A DNA stretch of 64,000 nt, from the sequence record NC_135729.1; one strand, 5' to 3'. The notes under the pieces are model-generated. The model ran no database searches. It was not told where the DNA came from and worked only from the letters and a program-made list of their open reading frames with translations. Source of the stretch: a phage. A program made the position numbers and the translations under genes. Positions 8,579 through 62,245 of this stretch are shown one piece after another. Within the stretch, counting starts at the first letter, position 1. Every line of letters begins with the position of its first letter.

Positions 8579-9424
8579 TTATGCCAGTGCAGCCTCAAAA
8601 TCTTTCATCATATTTTGGAAAGTTTTTGCCTTACTTAAGGTAACACCGTGCTCTTTGGCGAAGGTTTGGAGTGCATCTTTTGAACCACTTTTGTCATCTT
8701 CGTTGTTAAGAGCTGCGGCCTGCTGCAGTATGGCATCAATATCACTGCGAGAAGATCTTGATTCTTGTGCCTGTTCAGGATCCTGCTCAGTGCCTCCCGG
8801 TGCAGCCGGATCTGGGGATTCTTCACCGTCACCACCAGGTTCAGTAGGACCTACAGGCGGCTCCGGTTCTGGTTCAGGCGGTGGAGCTATCGTAGAAACC
8901 AGTCCAAGATTTACAACCTGAGAACGTTTCTTAGGCCACTCAATGGTGAAAGTTTGGGTATCTTCTTCATAAACAATGTTGCATTGCTCATCGTTTATGG
9001 TCACTTTTTTAGGCATCCCTACAGGGTCCCATAGATGCCCCTCTGCCACGGAAACTTGGAAAGCAGCATCTACCTCTTTAAACACTGACGGGGTGAGGGT
9101 GATATTGACATCCCCGCTTTGCAGTGTTAAAGTGCTTTCATCAAGGTTCTCTGTGAAGAACAGAAGAATAACACCCATACGGATAGTTGAAATACCAGTA
9201 TCAATTGGCAGGCCTGTATGTTTTGCAATCTTCTCAAAGAAGTCTACAATCGTTCTACATGGATAGTGAACACTGCCAATAACGAATTCTGTTGGTGGCA
9301 GCAGGGCTGATAAACCAACATTGATTTCTGGGTTATATTGTGCTAAAAATTGATAAAAACTTAACTGATTGTTGAAAACTCTTAATAGCGGATCATACTC
9401 AACTGGATATACGGCTCTCTTCAC
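8579..9424 (-). CDS. hypothetical virion protein with Pro/Glu-rich linker
   Basis: 281 aa; N-terminal domain, PPPEPEPEPP linker, short C-terminal domain; directly downstream of capsid gene. Confidence 0.4.
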   Translation of the reverse strand: MKRAVYPVEYDPLLRVFNNQLSFYQFLAQYNPEINVGLSALLPPTEFVIGSVHYPCRTIVDFFEKIAKHTGLPIDTGISTIRMGVILLFFTENLDESTLTLQSGDVNITLTPSVFKEVDAAFQVSVAEGHLWDPVGMPKKVTINDEQCNIVYEEDTQTFTIEWPKKRSQVVNLGLVSTIAPPPEPEPEPPVGPTEPGGDGEESPDPAAPGGTEQDPEQAQESRSSRSDIDAILQQAAALNNEDDKSGSKDALQTFAKEHGVTLSKAKTFQNMMKDFEAALA

Positions 9425-16744: not shown

Positions 16745-16821
16745 TGGTCTCCACGGAGTGATTCGAACACTCGACCTCCTGATCCCAAATCAGGCGCTCT
16801 ACCAAGCTGAGCTACGCGGAG
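16745..16821 (-). tRNA. tRNA-Pro (anticodon TGG)
   Basis: Hand-folded cloverleaf: C1-G72 acceptor, D-arm GCTC/GAGC, anticodon loop TTTGGGA, T-loop TTCGAAT, encoded CCA. Confidence 0.8.
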
Positions 16822-16832
16822 TATCTACTATT

Positions 16833-16907
16833 TGGTGGCCCTGGGTGGAATTGAACCACCGTCTGGCGATTATGAGTCGCTTGCTTGAACCTTCCAGCTA
16901 CAGGGCC
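16833..16907 (-). tRNA. tRNA-Met (anticodon CAT; initiator, elongator or Ile2 not resolved)
   Basis: Hand-folded cloverleaf, anticodon loop CTCATAA, T-arm GGTGG/CCACC, encoded CCA. Confidence 0.7.
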
Positions 16908-16908
16908 A

Positions 16909-16983
16909 TGGTGCTGATGGCAGGACTTGAACCCGCAACCTATTGATTACAAATCAATTGCACTACCAATTGTGCTACATCAG
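16909..16983 (-). tRNA. tRNA-Thr (anticodon TGT)
   Basis: Hand-folded cloverleaf, D-arm GCAC/GTGC, anticodon loop TTTGTAA, T-loop TTCAAGT, encoded CCA. Confidence 0.8.
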
Positions 16984-16988
16984 CAAAA

Positions 16989-17087
16989 AGGTGCTAGGCG
17001 GTGGAATCGAACCACCTATGTATTCAACGACTACCTCGTCTATTTTCAGGATTAAAAATCCTCGCCCTTGCCAAAGGGCTTACCTAG
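16989..17087 (-). tRNA. aberrant tRNA-like element (about 97 nt; anticodon unresolved)
   Basis: Canonical acceptor stem, D-arm (GCCC/GGGC) and T-arm (GGTGG-TTCGATT-CCACC), but about 30 nt extra between anticodon-like hairpin and T-arm. Confidence 0.35.
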
Positions 17088-17185
17088 CTCAATATGTTGA
17101 CCATGTTGCTAGTCGGCGATGACGACTGTAACATTTGATAATCCGGTTCTGCTTCCGGCTTTCGCTTAATTGCAAGGTCAACAAT

Positions 17186-17276
17186 GTGGCGGAGAGTAAT
17201 GGAATCGAACCATCATCGAGTCATCCTCAACGGGACGGTTTTCAAGACCGCTTGAGCACCATTGCTCCCTACCCTC
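17186..17276 (-). tRNA. tRNA-Ser (anticodon TGA), type II
   Basis: Acceptor GGAGGGT, anticodon loop CTTGAAA, long variable arm, T-loop TTCGATT, encoded CCA. Confidence 0.7.
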
Positions 17277-17392
17277 CTTTATAAATTATACTGATAATGA
17301 CACTGATTTTCGAGCAGTTAGTGACTAGTATAAACGACGATAAATATCAATGCCATTATCTGTATTATTTATGCATCTAAAAAATATAAATT

Positions 17393-17479
17393 TGGTGGGG
17401 AGTGGTGGAGTCGAACCACCCGAGTCGCAATGACAATAGATTTACAGTCTACACCGCTACCTCTACGGGATAACTCCCC
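17393..17479 (-). tRNA. tRNA-Tyr (anticodon GTA), type II
   Basis: Anticodon loop CTGTAAA; variable arm TGTCATTGCGACTCG closely resembles E. coli tRNA-Tyr; T-arm GGTGG/CCACC; CCA encoded. Confidence 0.75.
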
Positions 17480-17483
17480 AATT

Positions 17484-17558
17484 TGGCACCCCGTACTGGA
17501 CTCGAACCAGTGTCAACGGCTTAGAAGGCCGCTGCTTTATCCACTAAGCTAACAGGGC
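17484..17558 (-). tRNA. tRNA-Arg (anticodon TCT)
   Basis: D-arm GCTT/AAGC, anticodon loop CTTCTAA, T-loop TTCGAGT, encoded CCA. Confidence 0.8.
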
Positions 17559-18646: not shown

Positions 18647-18856
18647 TCAACAGATTCCGGCCTTATCCTTCCTGTCTGCGTATTCTTTAATCGCAACCTC
18701 ATCTGCATTAGTGACCAGGTATTCAAAGTAACTCTCAAGCTCCTCGTCAATGTCAGGAGACCAGCTCTTTTTCCTGTCAGTGTGAATTGCAGACTTGTTG
18801 AACTTATTACAGTTCTTTGCTACCGGGTTGTTCATTAAGCGCTCCTCAGCGTTCAT
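18647..18856 (-). CDS. hypothetical protein
   Basis: 69-aa ORF, start overlaps upstream gene end. Confidence 0.35.
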   Translation of the reverse strand: MNAEERLMNNPVAKNCNKFNKSAIHTDRKKSWSPDIDEELESYFEYLVTNADEVAIKEYADRKDKAGIC

Positions 18857-19424
18857 AGTAAATTTTATTTAACATTACCTCATCCTTTGCAGAAAGGATA
18901 TCTAGATATGCATCACCGAATCTACCTGCAACAACCTCTGCATGATACATCACTTCGTTAATATCGTCAAGAGTGATAACTGGATGACCGTATCTCTCTG
19001 AGTATTGTCTCAGAGTGCGATGTAGGGAGTCATCATCATAGGCAGACTTTTTAATATCGCAAACACGACGAATAGCCTTGATGTCGAAAAACCCTGTACG
19101 ATACCAACCAAGAAAAAGGTTTCGTGCAGTGTCAACATCTACATCAATACCATTAAGAACCTTATCTACAAGATAGCTGTCATCCTTTGGACCAGCTTCC
19201 TTAGTGCGAATGTAGTTGCCATCTTTTCCAGGTGACATCTCCTTCTCATCACCAACCTGCATGCCATCATTTGGCGGTGTTAGCCACTTATCCGGATGCT
19301 TACGATCACGAGCGTTAGAATGATTACGCTGGAAACCAGGCTTCCACTTGAAAGTTTTCTCCATCTGTTCTTCATTCTGATAACGTTTTGCAATCTTTTC
19401 ACGGTCATCTTTGCGTGAACCCAT
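18846..19424 (-). CDS. hypothetical protein
   Basis: 192-aa ORF with GAGGAGG SD upstream of ATG. Confidence 0.45.
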   Translation of the reverse strand: MGSRKDDREKIAKRYQNEEQMEKTFKWKPGFQRNHSNARDRKHPDKWLTPPNDGMQVGDEKEMSPGKDGNYIRTKEAGPKDDSYLVDKVLNGIDVDVDTARNLFLGWYRTGFFDIKAIRRVCDIKKSAYDDDSLHRTLRQYSERYGHPVITLDDINEVMYHAEVVAGRFGDAYLDILSAKDEVMLNKIYYER

Positions 19425-19927
19425 AGCTGCCTCCTCTTCAAGTTATAGAAAAACTCACTGTATCACTTTGTAACGAGCTTTTCTATCAAACTGGTGCGAT
19501 TGCATTACCTGGTATAGTTCATATAGCTGTGGAGCGATTTAGGGGCCTTCTTGTCAGTTTCCACACATAAACTTCATCCAAGCTCGCGCGGGAGACTCTC
19601 AACCGACTCCTTACGGCGCTGGCAAGCTTTCGTCGGTGGTCCACATCAGTGCTCGGCCTTTGGCCTGCGCTATCGCTTCGCTCCCACACATGTTAACAGA
19701 CCTGCATGTATGCACTTCTGTTATTGTGTGCACCAAGGAGGCCCGGCATCTCGCCCCTCGTAGGCGAGTGCCAATGAAGGGCCGACACTACCTATAGTAA
19801 GTAATAATTTTAAAACATGGTACTTAGGATCTAGTATATTCTACATAAGTTAAGTATATGTACTTAGTACCATAAGTACTAGATCTTTTATTTTTTATTA
19901 TTTAGTTATTTTAGTTATATTCTTTAT

Positions 19928-20010
19928 GTGTCCGTATCACGGACAGTTAGTGTCCGTATTACGGGCAGATGTGTCCGCGTGACGGACAGTAGTGTCCGTA
20001 TCACGGGCAG
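19928..20010. repeat. array of four tandem 22-bp palindromic repeats (iteron/operator-like)
   Basis: GTGTCCGTATCACGGACAG and three close variants in direct tandem, each with internal dyad TGTCCGT/ACGGACA; adjacent to 120-bp AT-rich tract. Confidence 0.7.
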
Positions 20011-20084
20011 TTACTGACCTCTGTTCCAGAGCGAACATAAAACATACGAATCCTTATAGTACAGATATTTAAGTTTTTACTGGT

Positions 20085-20435
20085 CTAACCAGTTGTTGAC
20101 ATTCGAATAACCTCTTCTGGTGGCAAAACTTTGGAAAATGTACATCTTTTACCTCTCCCTTGTGTGGATATTTCAACCACTCCTGCACATTCTAAAGTTT
20201 TAACGCACGCTGCTGCTTTTGTTTTCTTTATCCCAACATCTGCTGCAATTTTCCTTGTGCTTGGTGTGAAGCGTGAATTTCCTCCAAGCTTATACCAGTT
20301 GTGCAGGTAGCAGTATACGATCTTGTCATATAAGTCAAGAACAACAGCCTCCCCAGTTGTGTCATTCAAAACTTTTGACATAGACAGTATTTCAAGGGGG
20401 ACTTTAAGATATAGCAGCTTATCCCCATCTTTCAT
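20085..20435 (-). CDS. hypothetical protein (possible DNA-binding protein next to repeat array)
   Basis: 116-aa ORF whose stop is about 75 bp from the palindromic repeat array. Confidence 0.4.
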   Translation of the reverse strand: MKDGDKLLYLKVPLEILSMSKVLNDTTGEAVVLDLYDKIVYCYLHNWYKLGGNSRFTPSTRKIAADVGIKKTKAAACVKTLECAGVVEISTQGRGKRCTFSKVLPPEEVIRMSTTG

Positions 20436-20482: not shown

Positions 20483-21037
20483 TTACTCCCCGCTGTCAAT
20501 AGCAAGACTCATTGCAATACGGTATGCCTCTTCTAATGGTAAGAGTCTCCCCCACACATCCCAACCGACATCAAACTGCCTGCCAAACAACTGCTGTGTG
20601 GTTCCGTGAGCATGACCGAACAGTTGGACTGATCCGTGAGGCTTTCTGTTCCACTTTGCAAACTGGTAATGGCTCATACAGATCAAATTCTTGTTGTGGC
20701 GAAGCTCGTAATAATCTACAACCTCATGACCGAACTCTTTCATAATTCTGACAGTCGTCCTTGTGTCATGGTTACCACGAACAAGAATAATATGTCCGTT
20801 CAACATATTTAGAACATCTGGGAGCAATTTGTTGATATTCTTATCATTAGTGCACGCAATATCTCCCAAGTGAAACACAGTGTCTGCAGGTGACACAACA
20901 GAGTTCCACTCGGCGATGATTCCCGCATTCATACTGTCAAGATTGTGATCATACTGAGATCTGTGTTTTTGACATGAATCAAACTCCATGACCCGCTGGT
21001 GGAGAAAGTGTGTGTCGCTTGTTACAAAGTATTTCAT
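20483..21037 (-). CDS. calcineurin-like metallophosphoesterase (putative polynucleotide 3'-phosphatase)
   Basis: Start at Met (MKYFVTSDTHF); metallophosphatase motifs D-T-H, GDI, VRGNHD, GHAH. Confidence 0.7.
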   Translation of the reverse strand: MKYFVTSDTHFLHQRVMEFDSCQKHRSQYDHNLDSMNAGIIAEWNSVVSPADTVFHLGDIACTNDKNINKLLPDVLNMLNGHIILVRGNHDTRTTVRIMKEFGHEVVDYYELRHNKNLICMSHYQFAKWNRKPHGSVQLFGHAHGTTQQLFGRQFDVGWDVWGRLLPLEEAYRIAMSLAIDSGE

Positions 21038-21044
21038 ACATTCC

Positions 21045-21455
21045 TCATTTAAGTTTAATGCAGTTTTTAAGCTGGCGTTCCATACGATCCACAACCTTGT
21101 CTGGAACATCATGAATGCTTTTATTACCGTGGCGGTTTTCAACCACGATCACGGTATAACTATACCCGTGACTGATTGCCATGTCAACATATTCCTGCAC
21201 ATGTTTTTCTTTTGTAAACGTATTACTTACCACGATACGGTCGTATCCCGTACGCATCATATCTTCTACGTTATCTTTGCACCATTTTGCTGCGAGTGTT
21301 ACTTTACTTGCATCCCAGTTGTAATTGCCGTCATCGTCATACCAGAACATGTCGTTCTCAAAATGTGGATACAGACCTTCTAAAGATAGCGCATTTGCCA
21401 GTGTTGATTTGCCAGACCCTGGCAGACCACGCACGATATATAGCATTTTAGACAT
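21045..21455 (-). CDS. P-loop kinase (polynucleotide kinase-like)
   Basis: Start at Met (MSKMLYIVRG) with GGAGGG SD; Walker A GLPGSGKST; immediately upstream of the phosphatase gene. Confidence 0.6.
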   Translation of the reverse strand: MSKMLYIVRGLPGSGKSTLANALSLEGLYPHFENDMFWYDDDGNYNWDASKVTLAAKWCKDNVEDMMRTGYDRIVVSNTFTKEKHVQEYVDMAISHGYSYTVIVVENRHGNKSIHDVPDKVVDRMERQLKNCIKLK

Positions 21456-21515
21456 AGCAACCCTCCGTTTTAATTTTAATGATAGTATACCTAACTGTTT
21501 TGTTAATTTCAAGTG

Positions 21516-21545
21516 TTGACACTAGGTTATTTGTGTGGCATGATA
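21516..21545 (+). promoter_or_regulatory. possible promoter for ligase operon
   Basis: TTGACA at 21516 but only a weak -10 candidate. Confidence 0.3.
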
Positions 21546-21573
21546 GACTGACAAAATGACAAATGAGGAACGT

Positions 21574-22491
21574 ATGATGAAGTATTTTAATGCAGATGAC
21601 CTAGTAGACAAAGGTCTTGTAACCAGTCGGTATTATCCAGATCTTGGATTAAAGATCTATAAATATGCCAGAAAAGTATTCTACAACAATCTGTGGCATT
21701 TGTCTCCGCGTTTACTGGAGTGCCGAGGTATTGTTGTTGGCAATGAGGGGAATGTTGTGGCATGGCCTTTCACAAAAGTATTCAACTTAGGAGAAAACTC
21801 CACCAACCTACCGGACAGTAAACTTGTTACTGCGGTAGAGAAAAAGAACGGATTCCTCGGTGTGGTATCATCTCATAAAGGTGAACTATTGTTCTCAACA
21901 ACCGGGTCTCTTGATTCTCCATATTGTAACCTTGCAAAGGAAACCATCCAAGAGCAATGTGGTAATTTAGATCTTATCAAGAAGGTTATGGGCAATGAAA
22001 ACATGACATTCATGTTTGAAATTTGTCACCCTTCAGATCCGCATATTGTTCAGGAAGATCATGGCGCATATTTGATAGGTTGCAGATATAATGATTCTGG
22101 AATAATGCTACCAGAAGCAGCTTTAGATGGGATTGCCAAATACCTTGGTGCAAAACGTCCTCACACTGTGCGTGAAATTCCGTTCAGCTATGCAAAAGAA
22201 TTAGCTGCAGAAACAAGAGGTGAAGGGTATATGATTCGTAAGCCTTACTACCCTTATGATCTGCAGCTGAAGATCAAGTCTCCATACTATCTGGCACGGA
22301 AGGCCGTAATGAGGGGTAAAGCTTGGAAGATTTGGGATGATGATATCTTTAAACGTGTTGACGAAGAGTTTTACGGCATGGTAAACTTCATTCGTAGCAA
22401 TTACACAGAGGATGTGTGGAACTGCCTCCTGGAGCAGGAACGCCGTGAGATACTTGATTACTATTTCCACAACGAGAACTATATGCAATGA
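21574..22491 (+). CDS. nucleotidyltransferase of ligase family, probably RNA ligase
   Basis: Motif I-like EKKNGF, motif III-like FMFEIC, motif V-like EGYMIRK; divergent from kinase/phosphatase pair; start uncertain (track start 21556). Confidence 0.5.
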   Translation: MMKYFNADDLVDKGLVTSRYYPDLGLKIYKYARKVFYNNLWHLSPRLLECRGIVVGNEGNVVAWPFTKVFNLGENSTNLPDSKLVTAVEKKNGFLGVVSSHKGELLFSTTGSLDSPYCNLAKETIQEQCGNLDLIKKVMGNENMTFMFEICHPSDPHIVQEDHGAYLIGCRYNDSGIMLPEAALDGIAKYLGAKRPHTVREIPFSYAKELAAETRGEGYMIRKPYYPYDLQLKIKSPYYLARKAVMRGKAWKIWDDDIFKRVDEEFYGMVNFIRSNYTEDVWNCLLEQERREILDYYFHNENYMQ

Positions 22492-58440: not shown

Positions 58441-59133
58441 CAAAATATCAAATTTAAGACACCTAGGACGCTCTGTGGCGTCCTTTTCTTTATCTGGTGC
58501 ACGATTGCATACCTTGGGTAGTTAATCTCATTACAGAGCGTTTAAGAGCTCCCTACAAACAACTCCATATTTCGAGCGTAGCGAGAACGCACGTCCGTTT
58601 TGACCCAAATCACCATACGCTCGGATTTTAACCAAACCCTCGCGGCGTTTCTGTTGACACATTGCCGCTCCAGTGATAGTATCCACACATCGTTTGGAGA
58701 ATATGGAATACACAATGAAAACATTGTCAGAGGTTTTGGTGGTGATCCTGATGATCATTACGTCCATAGTGGCTGTTGCCGGAATACTCACGGGTGGAAC
58801 ATGATAAACACACATGCATCTGAAGAGACATCCAAAGGAGTGACTATATGTCCCTTGACTGAGCCAGTGCAAGAGGAAAACTTCGATTCTGAAGATTCTC
58901 CATCTTCGCTCCAGGTAGACCCTGAGGCTGATGACCTAACGTGGGAAGACATCGTAGATATCTGGTTCTCTATTATGCCTGAGCACGAAGAGTTCAGAGG
59001 TGGTAGACTATGAAGCACCGAGCCCACACAGGTTCCTCATGCTAAAGCATGGCCTGAAGAGGCAAACGTGCATAATTCCAGTGCATTGGAACATATAAAC
59101 CCTGTTCACATTCTCATTTCCAGAGGAGATTTC

Positions 59134-59349
59134 ATGAAGATAGAAATATTTGGTGGAGCTGACAACACTCGTGGCCTGATTTACCTTGAATTCGATGAAT
59201 CATACCTGCCAGAGGTGTTAAATATAGACTCTGTTGCTGAGGCTTTGGGAGTAAGTCCTAAAGATCTCTACTCTGGTGCTGAGATTGATGGTTGGGAGGA
59301 GACCATGAACATTGATTTCAGTGAAGTAGGTGATGAACCACTGGACTGA
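59134..59349 (+). CDS. hypothetical small acidic protein
   Basis: Start at Met MKIEIFGG with AGAGGAGA SD. Confidence 0.35.
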   Translation: MKIEIFGGADNTRGLIYLEFDESYLPEVLNIDSVAEALGVSPKDLYSGAEIDGWEETMNIDFSEVGDEPLD

Positions 59350-60192
59350 CACACAATTAGCTACCCGGCTAAAGTGCTGGGAGCACCTATAACACATCTT
59401 TCAACTAAATTTCCTACCACCACAATCACTTACCTCCCACACATGACTGTTTGCTTGTTTAGTGAGCAGTCATGCCTTGACATTCTTGCCTATCCTGATA
59501 AAATTAAGTTCTTCTCTTTTCTTTTACCGAGTAATTCGGGTTTTCTGTTCTCTTCGGTTTGAAGGGGTATAGAGATACACCTGAGTGAACAGGGTGAACA
59601 ACCGAACCATTAGCTATGGCATTAGCATGGCGAAGCGGACGGGTGACGAAAGAGGGGCCGGAGGACACCAGTCACTGCCATATGATATATGGGTGATAAC
59701 CTGAAGAGTCTGAATAAGTGTTTAAGTACCAGTCAGAGGAAAAGGTGAATGGTAGCCGAAGGGGGGAGGGGGGTTTCTTGTATCTTTAATTTGTATATTA
59801 TGTATACACTTGTAAACCAATCTAATCTGAATCTGTTTACCACGCAAAGCGGATAGAGACAAATATTGCCTATTAAACTTGAATTATTTATAGAAAATAC
59901 CACAACACCCCTTAAGTCTTTGATTTTACACACAAATCCTACAGATATTCAACCTCCATATTTAACATACTTGTAACATATTCCATACTCTACCTGTCTG
60001 ATCAACTCACCCAACTACATCCTCCATATTTCCCCTGTCTGTACTACCCCTGCCCCGCCTGGAGTCCCGTCATATCTGGCTTTCCAGCAAATATCCCACC
60101 CACAAATATCATTGCCTGAAGAGGGTTTCCTCCCATAATACATGCCTTACCTGAAGAGCGCTTCATATACCCCGTAAATTTTTTAATTGACA

Positions 60193-60225
60193 CCCTCCCC
60201 GCCGCCGGAGGGGGTTGGCTTTTCC
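60193..60225 (+). terminator. GC-rich hairpin, terminator-like
   Basis: CCCTCCCCGCCGCCGGAGGGGG followed by TTGGCTTTTCC. Confidence 0.35.
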
Positions 60226-60882
60226 CACACAGACCTGAAGAGCCAGCCAGAAATATCTGAACAGGTCCAGTTATACCACGATTTTGACCTGACCGACAGG
60301 AGTGCTGCCAGGCGGACGAAATGGGAATACTTCTCATTCTTATAACAATTCTCAAATATCGAGGCAGTGAGGCAAATTAATAGGTGAGGCCGTTCACATA
60401 GTGGCACAACATTTGCAATCTATTTTGTGTGGGGAATGAGAATACATATCATTGTGAGAACCATTATCATTACGGGCAATTTAACATAATACCCATTATG
60501 CGCACCACTGGCGATCCATACAGGGATTGATAACATGAGTTACTGTTTACACACATAACAATTATATTTCTTACTATTTGTGTGGGATATAGTTAGCAGC
60601 CGATAGATTAGATATTGACCTGTGGACTTCCAACAGTCTAGACGTCTAAGCGCCCACACAACAAGGCTTATACATACACAACTGAATGTAAACAGGGCCG
60701 CAAAAATGCTACCATACCAGCTTGTAAATTTTTCATACAGCACTTGACAAAGAGGAGAAAAACTTGTCTGACACTTTAGACACCTTTGACACACTGGGCA
60801 TACTAAACACTGGATATAATAACAATTGTTACTATTGCATGCCTCACTGTTCACGTATAGACTATTTGCTCAAAAATTATAA

Positions 60883-61171
60883 GCCATGCCATTCGTTTGC
60901 ATGATAACGATTAGCAAGTTAATAATCTTTCACTGGCTATGCCAGGTGACCTTTGGTCACCCCTTCGGGTGTTTCTATGACATAATATAAAAGCAGGGCA
61001 ACTATTAGAAGATCTATAGTTGCCTTGCTTGTTATGTCATGATTAACTAAATACAAGGCAACTATGATCTGATTAATAGTTTGCAGGCAAACTATCACGG
61101 GGGTGATGGTTACTGCTTTTATATTATGTCGCGACTCCGTCGCGCCATGCCATTCGTTTGCATAGTTGCCT
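60883..61171. repeat. repeat cluster: 20-bp direct repeats flanking nested inverted repeats and multiple GGCAACTAT/ATAGTTGCC 9-mers
   Basis: GCCATGCCATTCGTTTGCAT at about 60883 and 61144; palindromes GGTGACC-TTT-GGTCACC and GGCAACTAT...ATAGTTGCC; 9-mer in both orientations at least five times. Confidence 0.6.
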
Positions 61172-61779
61172 TATTGTTACAGGTAAAATAATCACATTAT
61201 TAATTATTTCTTATCTTTCTCTTAGTCATCTAATGATTCCAGTCAGTATAGTAATGTACAGTAGACATTAGACGACTAAAGATTTCTCTGTTTATGATAA
61301 CTCATCGTGATAATTTCGGACTGTTTACGAAAAATGTTGACACCTGAGCTGATTTATGTTATGCAGTTTACACGAATAATTATTTTATGCAGGTATTGAC
61401 TATTCCGTTATTCTGTGGTTGGAATAAATACTTTGCAGGCTATAGAATGGCGTGCGTACGTGAATTCTTAGATCTGGCGGCTATAGTTATACTCGATTTT
61501 TCGCGTAGGACACGCTTTCTATGTTGTGTAAGTGTATGACTTATAAAGATTTTTAGTTGTTGACAAGATATTGGAGATGTGCATCAGGTTAAAATTTGTG
61601 CAATAGCGGCATTACGTGCACTTTTGGGAGAGAAAACGGGTAAAAATGGCCCTGCTACCACACAGTGAAAGATTATGCAATAGTTATTTTATATGTATAT
61701 TTGTACAGTGTGTGGGATTAATGGCTAGTCAATTATTCCACTTGCCGGGTAGGGCCGTTTATGGTAGGAGAAGAGCAGA

Positions 61780-61806
61780 CAAAAAGAAAGGGGCCTTTAA
61801 GCCCCT
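61780..61806 (-). terminator. intrinsic terminator for leftward genes
   Basis: GGGGC-ttaaag-GCCCC followed by TTTCTTTTTG on minus strand. Confidence 0.5.
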
Positions 61807-61825
61807 TGATAATTCAGTTAAGAAA

Positions 61826-62245
61826 TTATAATGATTCGTATATTTCAAAAATCCGATTTGCCAGGTCGTTACGGTAGCGGAATTTTTCATCACGTTTGAT
61901 CATCAGATCTTTAAAGCCGTATTCTTTAAGCACTTCATTAACTTTATGGCGGCACACCTTCATATTGTCCTGAGCGTCACCAATAAACCTGTTGCTATGG
62001 TGCATGGCTTTAATTTCTTCTTCCAGGACCAGGGCAACTATGCGGACCGGATCAAGCTGATAGGCGGTAACATCAATGCGGCATTGTAAACGGCTTTTTA
62101 CGTCTGCCACCGGATATACTGCAACCTCTTCCCCGTCAACATTGACAATAATTAGTTTACCATCGATTTCGAATCCTTTCGCCGCCGGACCGTGACAAAA
62201 AGCGTTATCAAAGCTATATGCCGGATTATCAGATTTAATGTTCAT
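61826..62245 (-). CDS. hypothetical protein
   Basis: 139-aa ORF with AAGAGGT SD. Confidence 0.45.
   Translation of the reverse strand: MNIKSDNPAYSFDNAFCHGPAAKGFEIDGKLIIVNVDGEEVAVYPVADVKSRLQCRIDVTAYQLDPVRIVALVLEEEIKAMHHSNRFIGDAQDNMKVCRHKVNEVLKEYGFKDLMIKRDEKFRYRNDLANRIFEIYESL

Follow-up and report, generated by a model that had tools for sequence, protein, structure and literature searches.

The replication origin of lambda-type phages is made up of four iterons, which have internal dyad symmetry, together with an AT-rich tract beside them and a palindrome that flanks them, and a small RNA gene, oop, lies alongside. The control and primer RNAs of plasmids, such as ColE1 RNA II and RNA I, R1 CopA and the counter-transcripts of pT181 and pIP501, are structured non-coding molecules encoded beside an origin or a rep gene; their stems covary and their loops form the recognition surface. 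Satellites, in turn, copy cis-acting sites from their helpers: the cos site of P4 is that of P2, and Staphylococcus aureus pathogenicity islands (SaPIs) as well as chromosomal islands inducible by phages (PICIs) carry pac or cos sites. Here we describe a folded non-coding element in a GC-rich island at positions 19545–19795 of a 64,000-nt stretch of phage DNA (sequence record NC_135729.1, hereafter the window). It recalls each of these systems and is homologous to none; its closest functional analogies are the origin-associated RNAs (ColE1 RNA II/I, R1 CopA, lambda oop) and the satellite-copied cis sites (P4/P2 cos).

The core of the element is a stem-loop that is also found in circular plasmids which look like satellites of this phage group. 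Any explanation has to account for a fixed loop borne on stems that are free to change, for the constant company of an AT-rich tract, palindromic repeats and an initiator-like gene, and for the presence of the element both in a virulent 137-kb phage and in plasmid-like elements. It is probably a control or recognition signal needed by the phage and its parasites alike, and the explanation that we favour on comparative grounds, at a probability of about 0.4, is that it constitutes the RNA part of a replicon-control module which the satellites share.

A covarying stem-loop in a gene-free interval

The window belongs to a Vequintavirus (rV5-like) myovirus of Escherichia coli. The island lies in a gene-free interval (19425–20084) between two minus-strand genes, one for a 192-aa protein with no function assigned (18846–19424) and one for a 116-aa winged helix-turn-helix (wHTH) protein (20085–20435). 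The interval is unannotated in most annotated relatives and has a mean column identity of 96% across 10 diverse phages; positions 19400–20100 match 118 phage records at 88–100% identity, and the island is carried by all 118 Vequintavirus records. Its GC content is 56.2%, compared with a window mean of 42.9% (sd 3.5%, 251-nt segments); the highest 251-nt value, 57.4%, starts at 19542, and the value of the island is reached by 0.05% of the segments. An earlier sequence-only reading had singled out this stretch of about 250 bp for its raised GC content, its position in a 660-bp gene-free interval and its want of a convincing open reading frame (ORF), and was right in all three respects: GC content across the window peaks at the island, the interval measures exactly 660 bp, and all six frames are open by composition, with small ORFs that lack conserved starts. 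The island is a genuine non-coding element, neither a gene nor a compositional accident.

Both proteins that flank the interval are restricted to Vequintavirus and comparison within the genus alone therefore had little power; the island core is nearly invariant among the ten diverse phages, and a single hairpin tip varies or is deleted. When complete E. coli genomes and plasmids were searched with the island by sensitive BLAST, partial matches of ∼ 85% identity turned up in circular plasmids of 13.2–13.7 kb, as well as in a 39.6-kb multimer of one such plasmid; taking all searches together, the E. coli plasmids with copies measure 13.2–13.9 kb. In the 68-nt block aligned between phage and satellite, which is 84% identical, six of the 11 differences are three complementary double changes in one 6-bp helix, designated P1, whose arms read ACCGAC/GTCGGT in the phage and GCTGCC/GGCAGC in the satellite. 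The 24 nt between the arms are unchanged, save for one A/C position that is also variable among phages.

The helix is part of a core domain, block 1 (19577–19650, plus strand; covariance model R1, 99.9 bits), which consists of a GCGCGGGAG box, a three-tier stem-loop and the box GGTCCACAT. Block 1 is single-copy in the window and was found with model R1 in all phages tested and in 11 satellites. The stem-loop (19594–19641, plus strand) is built of helix P0' (GACT at 19594–97 with GGTC at 19638–41), helix P1 (ACCGAC at 19602–07 with GTCGGT at 19632–37) and helix P1b (GCT at 19618–20 with AGC at 19625–27, closed by the loop GGCA), with TCCTTACGGC and TTTC as the internal-loop strands. The CCGAC...GTCGG pairing noticed in the sequence-only reading is this covarying helix P1. 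More distant satellites have further versions of it, namely CCGTCC/GGACGG, GCCGGA/TCCGGC and GCAGCC/GGCTGC, and satellite L094 adds a sixth variant, GCCGTC/GACGGC. Thus, P1 takes the form of six different Watson-Crick stems across phages and satellites, and parts of the internal loop are invariant.

In an alignment of 22 distinct sequences, five of the six P1 pairs are changed on both sides and 97% of the cells are paired, counts that are biased in favour of P1 because the alignments (A5 and A6) were fitted to a model containing it. P0' and P1b lie outside that model: 93% of the P0' cells are paired, and two of the three P1b pairs are changed on both sides (GCT-GGCA-AGC versus GGC-RGCA-GCC). 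The compensations were first apparent in plain BLAST and ungapped alignments, with three double changes in P1 and two in the downstream hairpin P2 (see below). The overall covariation score is 0.459, compared with 0.136 ± 0.019 for shuffles (none of 500 reaches the observed value) and at most 0.094 when the partners are slid, and RNAalifold, given no structure beforehand, predicts P0' and P1. The folding energy of the island is only modestly better than that of shuffles (z = −2.7 on the plus strand and −2.5 on the minus strand), and the case for the fold therefore rests on sequence comparison rather than on energy. A structure not conserved across related phages would have told against the sequence-only reading on its own terms; what we find are compensatory changes that keep the fold, which judged by this comparison is almost certainly real and under selection. 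What is fixed are parts of its internal loops (TCCTTMCGGC ... TTTC) and the flanking boxes; the stems can vary provided that pairing is kept. No other non-coding feature of the genus is as well conserved as this element, whose fold is now defined and can be mutated.

Downstream of block 1 lie several smaller hairpins. The second pairing of the sequence-only reading, GGCC-TTT-GGCC, is present (19655–19665, plus strand), and the alignment holds no informative variation for it. It is followed by the linker motif CCCACACA (19683–19690, plus strand), which also parts the hairpin cassettes of the satellites, and by a variable hairpin cassette recognized from inverted repeat I1, the alignment and the sequences (19687–19730, plus strand); the tip of this cassette is deleted (18–19 nt) in the phages Murica, O157 typing phage 5 and MaxTheCat, and in two divergent phages, L010 and L086, the whole cassette has a remodelled form. 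The third pairing proposed earlier exists in a slightly different register, the actual helix being CTCGCC/GGCGAG at 19750–55 and 19763–68, within P2. The latter is a 15-bp bulged hairpin (19740–19783, plus strand; GGCCC/GGGCC, GGCA/TGCC and CTCGCC/GGCGAG; covariance model R2, 98.8 bits) with every cell paired in nine distinct sequences and two of its 15 pairs double-changed, both in satellite L011. Satellites L011 and L087 have P2 as one of their cassettes.

R1 and R2 have one match each in the 64-kb window. In the 8.5-kb loci of Hena1, BIS47 and PVP-SE1, which represent other genera of Vequintavirinae and differ in synteny, neither model found a match; whole genomes of these phages were not scanned. 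Around the gene for a distant homologue of the 192-aa protein (L085), genes are tightly packed, leaving neither gap nor element. In satellite L096 the boxes that flank P1 are kept (GCGCGCGAGAAACTC ... CGGTCC, 8582–8627) with ∼ 4 nt in place of the P1 hairpin. We rejected a long-range closing stem, GGAGCGA/TCGCTCC, since the changes in FV3 and Aya are uncompensated, and dropped both a pseudoknot-like helix, GGGA/TCCT, which has one compensatory change but two disruptions, and a minus-strand helix, GUGUGGGA/UCCCGCGC, that would join the CCCACACA motif to the GCGCGGGAG box, because its two strands hardly vary and it is broken in L086.

Most records leave the element unannotated, and no Rfam family includes it. 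The Rfam scan that the sequence-only reading had proposed returned no family match for the island: searched with Rfam 15 at gathering threshold, the whole window gave five tRNA matches and nothing else, the gap at E ≤ 10 gave rli43 at 22.9 bits (gathering score 100) plus noise, and two satellites and L086 at E ≤ 0.1 gave tRNAs only. ARAGORN and the Rfam tRNA model found nothing in 19425–20084, i.e. no tRNA-like domain. The sequence-only reading had likened the island to the stable RNAs that T4 encodes alongside its tRNAs. Those RNAs (species 1 and 2, bands C and D) belong to the tRNA gene cluster and are transcribed and processed together with the tRNAs. The likeness extends to a structured non-coding candidate RNA encoded by a phage that also has tRNA genes. 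However, closeness to the tRNA cluster is true in a loose sense only, as the seven tRNA genes (16745–17558, minus strand) are ∼ 2 kb away with five protein genes in between; the wobble pairs discussed below favour the strand opposite to the tRNAs, and the constant neighbours of the element are the AT-rich tract, the iterons and the wHTH gene. The T4 parallel is therefore not supported: the element is outside the tRNA cluster, probably on the opposite strand, and has no tRNA-like features.

Satellite-like plasmids and the replication-type context

The plasmids that share the element encode a major capsid protein assigned to the same PHROG as that of the phage, a Dit-like protein (50% identical to its counterpart in the window), a 152-aa protein (45% identical to the neck/tail-completion protein of the window), a tape-measure protein (25%), and HTH and Rep-like proteins; we found no terminase or portal genes in them. 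A resolvase or AntA is encoded by some of them as well. In every one the island match falls within a gene-free region of 2.2–2.9 kb. A protein search with the Dit-like protein yielded ∼ 90 homologues, many of them on contigs of 13–15 kb or 19–20 kb, of which ten contigs were fetched, and a metagenome scan added further copies of both the phage and the satellite type. The family comprises L011, L012, L072–L075, L077 and L087–L096, a mixture of E. coli plasmids and metagenome/Logan contigs; the plasmids include NZ_CP020521.1, NZ_CP043822.1, NZ_CP178698.1, NZ_CP035869.1 and CP148565.1. There is one copy of P1 per satellite, with the exception of L089 and L093, which have two, and it is always located in the gene-free region in the same orientation to the Dit gene. 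The 39.6-kb NZ_CP043822.1 (L012) is a head-to-tail satellite multimer with three copies of block 1. Two of its repeat units in the fetched locus lie ∼ 13.5 kb apart and are non-identical, with some genes truncated; the multimer may reflect headful packaging of concatemers or recombination.

Judged from their gene content, the circular elements of 13–15 kb probably have a plasmid existence and are satellites of virulent phages of the rV5-like group, and the family, together with the 19–20 kb class, is apparently undescribed in the literature that we searched. Nothing relevant was found there on rV5 transcriptomes, small RNAs or satellites. Two subgroups of satellite copies, types C and D, had no BLAST match among 50,697 phage records, and more helpers, or more uses of the element, therefore await discovery. 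An exact 18-mer scan of 185,579 species genomes gave 59 matches, all of them due to chance and with no shared flanks, and an IMG/VR search seeded with the wHTH protein yielded no confirmed locus. If these elements are indeed satellites of a virulent coliphage, they would add a class of satellites that live as plasmids and remodel the capsid as well as the tail. The shared P1 domain offers a handle on how they sense or exploit the helper. rV5-like phages are widely isolated and are candidates for therapy and biocontrol, and the efficacy of a therapy phage could suffer from interference by such elements if they are present in the strains used for production or targeted by treatment.

The layout of the satellites mirrors that of the phage. 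After block 1 there are short, perfectly paired hairpin cassettes, variable in number and order and parted by CCCACACA (CCCACCA in one subgroup), the last of which is an 11-bp hairpin with a T-rich tail; then follow a G/C-rich hairpin, a short A/T-rich stretch and 5–10 palindromic repeats of ∼ 21 bp that differ between satellites. In the phage this order recurs in an abbreviated form, with block 1 followed by small hairpins, CCCACACA, a single variable cassette, P2, the AT-rich tract and finally four palindromes. The general architecture of the element is a core stem-loop, then optional short hairpins parted by CCCACACA, then P2 at the end. The variation in cassettes between close relatives suggests shuffling at the CCCACACA motif. 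In this the element resembles the promoter early stem-loop (PeSL) cassettes, mobile regulatory units of T4-type phages, and the enterobacterial arrays of bacterial interspersed mosaic elements (BIMEs) and repetitive extragenic palindromes (REPs), which also consist of short hairpin cassettes of variable number and order parted by a fixed motif. It differs from them in that the core P1 domain is single-copy per genome, the unit has no promoter, and the CCCACACA motif is dispersed (16 copies in the window) but without hairpins.

The AT-rich tract of the phage (19800–19925) has a GC content of 24–34%, contains GTACTTAG inverted repeats (inverted repeat I7) and is almost invariant among phages; L010 and L086 have a T-rich tract in the matching place. 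Next come four palindromic 17-bp sites, TGTCCGTATCACGGACA (19928–20019; direct-repeat family D1, inverted repeats I2–I5), spaced 21–22 bp apart, which resemble iterons or operators and which several records annotate as repeat_region. Their presumed binder is the 116-aa wHTH protein. It matches Pfam HTH_36 (24.5 bits, cut-off 25) and DUF6945, both just under the gathering score, PHROG 12838, its own family, which is named 'replication initiation protein', at 1e-79, and, weakly, the initiator PHROGs phrog_8102 and phrog_428; these PHROG names are annotations, not functional tests. The Rep-like proteins of the satellites show the same kind of weak similarity to O-like and initiator PHROGs and to Pfam HTH_36, and their iteron arrays occupy the same relative position as in the phage. 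The divergent phages L010 and L086 have a different wHTH protein (that of L086 matches phrog_8102) and different palindromic repeats (TGATACAAATATGTATCA) but keep the island, and the 192-aa protein of L086 is 83% identical to that in the window. Single satellites hold several different iteron families. As L010 and L086 swap the wHTH gene and the repeats and retain the island, the sequences indicate that the ∼ 21-bp palindromic repeats and the adjacent wHTH or Rep-like gene form an exchangeable cassette of which the folded element is the constant part.

The arrangement resembles a lambda-type origin: four palindromic sites about two helical turns apart, the AT-rich tract, the GC-rich hairpin P2, an initiator-like DNA-binding gene alongside, and a small non-coding element that abuts the array. 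The exchange of initiator and iterons as one cassette between relatives is likewise known from lambdoid phages. There are also clear differences. The phage array lies outside the initiator gene whereas that of lambda lies inside it, the 116-aa protein is only remotely like initiators, and the origin itself is putative here; moreover, the structured part is much larger (∼ 200 nt), and lambda has nothing that corresponds to its covarying, fixed-loop stem-loop. The plasmid control RNAs share with the element a structured non-coding nature, a place beside an origin or rep gene, plasmid carriers and covarying stems with loops as recognition surface. In addition, such RNAs have to fold in the sense as well as the antisense copy, a requirement that would account for stems made of Watson-Crick pairs only. 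Against this, there is no sequence or Rfam similarity, a promoter and an overlapping target transcript are hypothetical here, iteron replicons seldom use such RNAs, and the element is present in a strictly virulent 137-kb phage as well. The parallel with the satellite-copied sites (P4 cos; SaPI/PICI pac or cos) is that a short non-coding sequence is what is best conserved between a helper and elements deficient in morphogenesis; the known sites are double-stranded packaging sites without covarying stems, whereas here a folded domain lies beside replication-type repeats, and both the helper relationship and the function are deduced from sequence.

Strand, nucleic acid and competing explanations

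In the explanation that we favour, the module would consist of the initiator-like wHTH gene, the four palindromic iterons, the AT-rich tract and the folded element, the last being its RNA component. An RNA of 200–320 nt would be made from the plus strand, antisense to the flanking genes, starting shortly 5' of 19585 and running toward, or ending in, the AT-rich tract, and might either switch on or prime initiation at the edge of that tract or serve as a counter-transcript. Since satellites with iterons and an initiator of their own have the same P1 domain, its fixed loop is probably the recognition surface for a factor, phage- or host-encoded, that is common to helper and satellite. A link between the function of the element and the replicon is in itself tentative.

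We infer the strand and the type of nucleic acid mainly from wobble pairs. In columns 22/64, 16 sequences have U.G as the P0' pair, four have U-A and two have C-G, a series that pairs on the plus strand only (U.G becomes C.A on the minus strand), and the same is true of a U.G pair in P2 of L087. The last satellite cassette, with its 11-bp hairpin and T-rich tail, is terminator-like on the plus strand only; L010 and L086 have a hairpin and then a long T-run, TTTCTTTTCTCTTTTTC, after P2, and in the window a weak AU-rich hairpin (19860–79) is followed on the plus strand by the run TTTTATTTTTT (19886–96), with a folding energy of −7 kcal/mol. On balance, these comparisons tip the scales towards an element that acts as RNA, and they lend a similar, modest preponderance to the plus strand, antisense to the flanking genes and the tRNAs, as the functional one. 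If the element is an RNA, it would be a new family for Rfam.

Several observations weigh against this explanation, in addition to the way in which the P1 alignments were made. The P1 closing pair is A.C on the plus strand and G.U on the minus strand in four sequences from at least three lineages. RNAalifold gives the whole island −68.6 kcal/mol on the minus strand versus −62.1 kcal/mol on the plus strand, where it does not recover P1. Neither strand of the gap yielded a sigma-70-type promoter or a canonical intrinsic terminator; the plus-strand search gave only non-canonical −10-like hexamers whose spacing to any −35 is impossible. Stems that are nearly pure Watson-Crick fit single-stranded DNA (ssDNA) hairpins, or folding of both strands, as well as they fit RNA. 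The natural loss of the hairpin in L096 means that P1 is dispensable for some elements. That the iterons and the AT-rich tract serve as an origin is argued only from their architecture and from remote protein similarity, and the rV5 genome paper names no origin, the skew changing just where the direction of transcription switches. Finally, a second complex gene-free region of ∼ 2.5 kb (about 59350–61870) is an equally possible origin.

The best of the alternatives, unlikely as it seems, is a trans-acting regulatory small RNA (sRNA) unconnected with replication, in which an anti-Shine-Dalgarno-like CUCCUU in the P1 internal loop and the C/A-rich CCCACACA linkers would pair with host, phage or satellite mRNAs, or titrate an RNA-binding protein, and the satellite copy would interfere with the helper or sense it. 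Such an RNA would suit the conserved fold with its invariant loops, the plus-strand U.G pairs and the terminator-like last cassette of the satellites; the CUCCUU box is visible in the sequence, and the number of hairpin cassettes varies as it does in sponge-type RNAs. However, the box is not kept in the type-D satellite copies, which have UCGU or UUCUU, and no promoter was found in the gap. A search for a partner of the P1 loop revealed no complement of at least 7 nt in or near the gap, there is no same-strand complementary target of that length near the element, and matches of 8–9 nt in other parts of the window are nothing out of the ordinary. Nor would such an RNA explain why iterons and an AT-rich tract constantly accompany the element in phage and satellites.

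Another alternative is an ssDNA signal inside a replication origin, which by analogy with G4-type or phiX-type single-strand initiation sites would fold into hairpins once the AT-rich tract opens and direct priming or helicase loading; the phage replisome would recognize the element and the satellites would copy it. We regard this as quite unlikely. The element does lie directly beside the AT-rich tract and iterons in all carriers and stays in place when initiator and iterons swap, its stems, almost purely Watson-Crick, fold equally on either strand, no promoter was found, and the rV5 paper credits the phage with a primase-helicase of the T7 gp4 type. The U.G/U-A/C-G series in P0' and the U.G pair in P2 of L087, on the other hand, are typical of RNA and less favourable in DNA, and the origin is itself putative. 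We also considered GTGTC and TGGTC as T7-type primase sites and rejected them because they are not conserved in L010 and L079.

A signal recognized in DNA packaging (pac) and shared by helper and satellites would agree with the circularly permuted genome of rV5, which indicates headful packaging, and with the existence of the 39.6-kb satellite multimer. Satellites that have capsid and tail proteins but neither terminase nor portal must carry the packaging signal of the helper, and block 1 is the best-conserved DNA common to both. But the DNA read by terminase small subunits is double-stranded, so that covarying stems and a fixed loop would have no purpose in it, and the element is far from the packaging genes, in an early-gene region with polynucleotide kinase (Pnk), phosphoesterase, RNA ligase and tRNAs as neighbours. 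The P1 variants of the type C and D satellites have no counterpart in the 50,697 phage records, and other short shared segments, such as 60926–60976, are equally eligible. Taken together, this makes a packaging signal very unlikely.

There is equally little to be said for a cis-regulatory element of a minus-strand mRNA, a structured intercistronic leader of the 192-aa gene and of the genes and tRNAs beyond it that would act as processing site, antiterminator or translational control. A sigma-70-like promoter 5' of the wHTH gene (20499–20470, minus strand) is not separated from the island by a terminator, and read-through from it would transcribe the minus strand of the island, on which the P1 closing pair is G.U in the four sequences mentioned above, the consensus fold has the lower energy and fewer mismatches, and the P1 loop contains a strong Shine-Dalgarno-like UAAGGAG. 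This strand, however, turns the P0' pair of 16 of the 22 sequences and the U.G pair of L087 P2 into C.A mismatches, and a start codon follows the UAAGGAG box in the phage only, not in the satellites. The downstream genes of the satellites differ as well, and the best predicted minus-strand promoter (that of the rep operon in satellite L075) is located downstream of the element, which places the element outside that mRNA.

The last alternative, small protein-coding genes like those annotated in certain GenBank records (minus-strand ORFs of 56 aa and 31 aa), or an open frame on the plus strand, is almost negligible and was rejected: records of the BASEL collection do annotate ORFs of 171, 96 and 102 nt here, and the 18-nt and 3-nt indels of some phages are multiples of three, but composition leaves six of six frames open, the 56-aa ORF starts with GTG and lacks a convincing Shine-Dalgarno sequence, one small ORF is broken by the 19-nt deletion of MaxTheCat, the ORFs are cut short in L010 and have no counterpart in the satellites, phage–satellite differences occupy paired stem positions rather than third codon positions, and most annotation pipelines leave the interval empty. 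None of the small ORF peptides is listed in the virion proteomics of rV5, in which early proteins are not expected.

An RNA of a shared replicon-control module remains our preferred explanation. A more far-reaching idea, which we put forward with some doubt, regards the P1 domain as the 'handshake' of a previously unrecognized helper–satellite system in which plasmid-borne satellites of 13–15 kb, and possibly the 19–20 kb class, exploit strictly virulent rV5-like myoviruses. Such satellites would make their own capsid, tape-measure and Dit-like proteins and would exploit the helper through a folded RNA or ssDNA signal, the fixed loop of which would be read by a phage or host factor and trigger replication or packaging, with stem and iteron variants defining specificity groups. 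If true, a structured nucleic-acid element, not a linear cos or pac site, would be central to satellite parasitism.

Other features of the interval and the window

The module as a whole occupies the gene-free interval delimited by the ORF list (19425–20084) and comprises leader motifs, the GC-rich island, the AT-rich tract and the iterons. On the plus strand it begins with a moderately variable stretch, where the 5' leader of the 192-aa gene contains a hairpin. An imperfect 12-bp inverted repeat in this leader, ATAGAAAAACTC / GAGCTTTTCTAT (19445–19486), is conserved and has been retained also in the divergent phages L010 and L086. It is followed by a palindromic site, CTGGTGCGATTGCATTACCTGG (19491–19512), recognized in a plus/minus BLAST match (19/20) and in alignments, which in the satellites is also found ∼ 100 nt from block 1 in inverted orientation; by a ATTTAGGGG box (19537–19545, plus strand) that, according to the alignments, the satellites share in the same orientation as block 1; and by a first copy of the linker motif, CCACACA (19561–19567, plus strand).

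The octamer CCCACACA/TGTGTGGG occurs 16 times in the window, compared with ∼ 2 expected, and none of 100 shuffles reaches this number. Example sites are 132, 735, 1939, 19683, 20551 and 59023–61716, with seven copies within 59.0–61.7 kb, and the motif is also found just 5' of some Shine-Dalgarno sites. As it matches a DnaA box at five of nine positions, we rejected that interpretation. The second large gene-free region (59350–61870) is situated between convergent gene blocks and contains direct and inverted repeats of the GCAACTAT type, several short hairpins and an exact 20-nt direct repeat at 60883 and 61144. A 51-nt piece of it (60926–60976) is 80–90% identical to one or two places in each satellite. 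This region may be the 'non-coding' box that is drawn on the map in the rV5 genome paper and not discussed in its text.

Beside the module there is an RNA-repair-type gene set, consisting of a metallophosphoesterase (20483–21142, minus strand), a polynucleotide kinase/AAA_33 protein (21045–21512, minus strand) and an RNA ligase (21556–22491, plus strand); the last two genes diverge from a shared promoter region at about 21480–21545. Among the records that match the interval, 18 (MG0656xx) are titled 'Campylobacter phage', with C. jejuni given as the host, and are near-identical here to the E. coli Vequintaviruses; these titles are probably a labelling or propagation-host artefact of the deposits. 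Within the tRNA cluster, ARAGORN calls a 99-nt 'tRNA-???' with a four-base anticodon (atcc) at 16990–17088 on the minus strand. Other records annotate this locus as tRNA-Lys(TTT) or tRNA-OTHER of 97–98 nt, and it may be an intron-containing or otherwise unusual tRNA.

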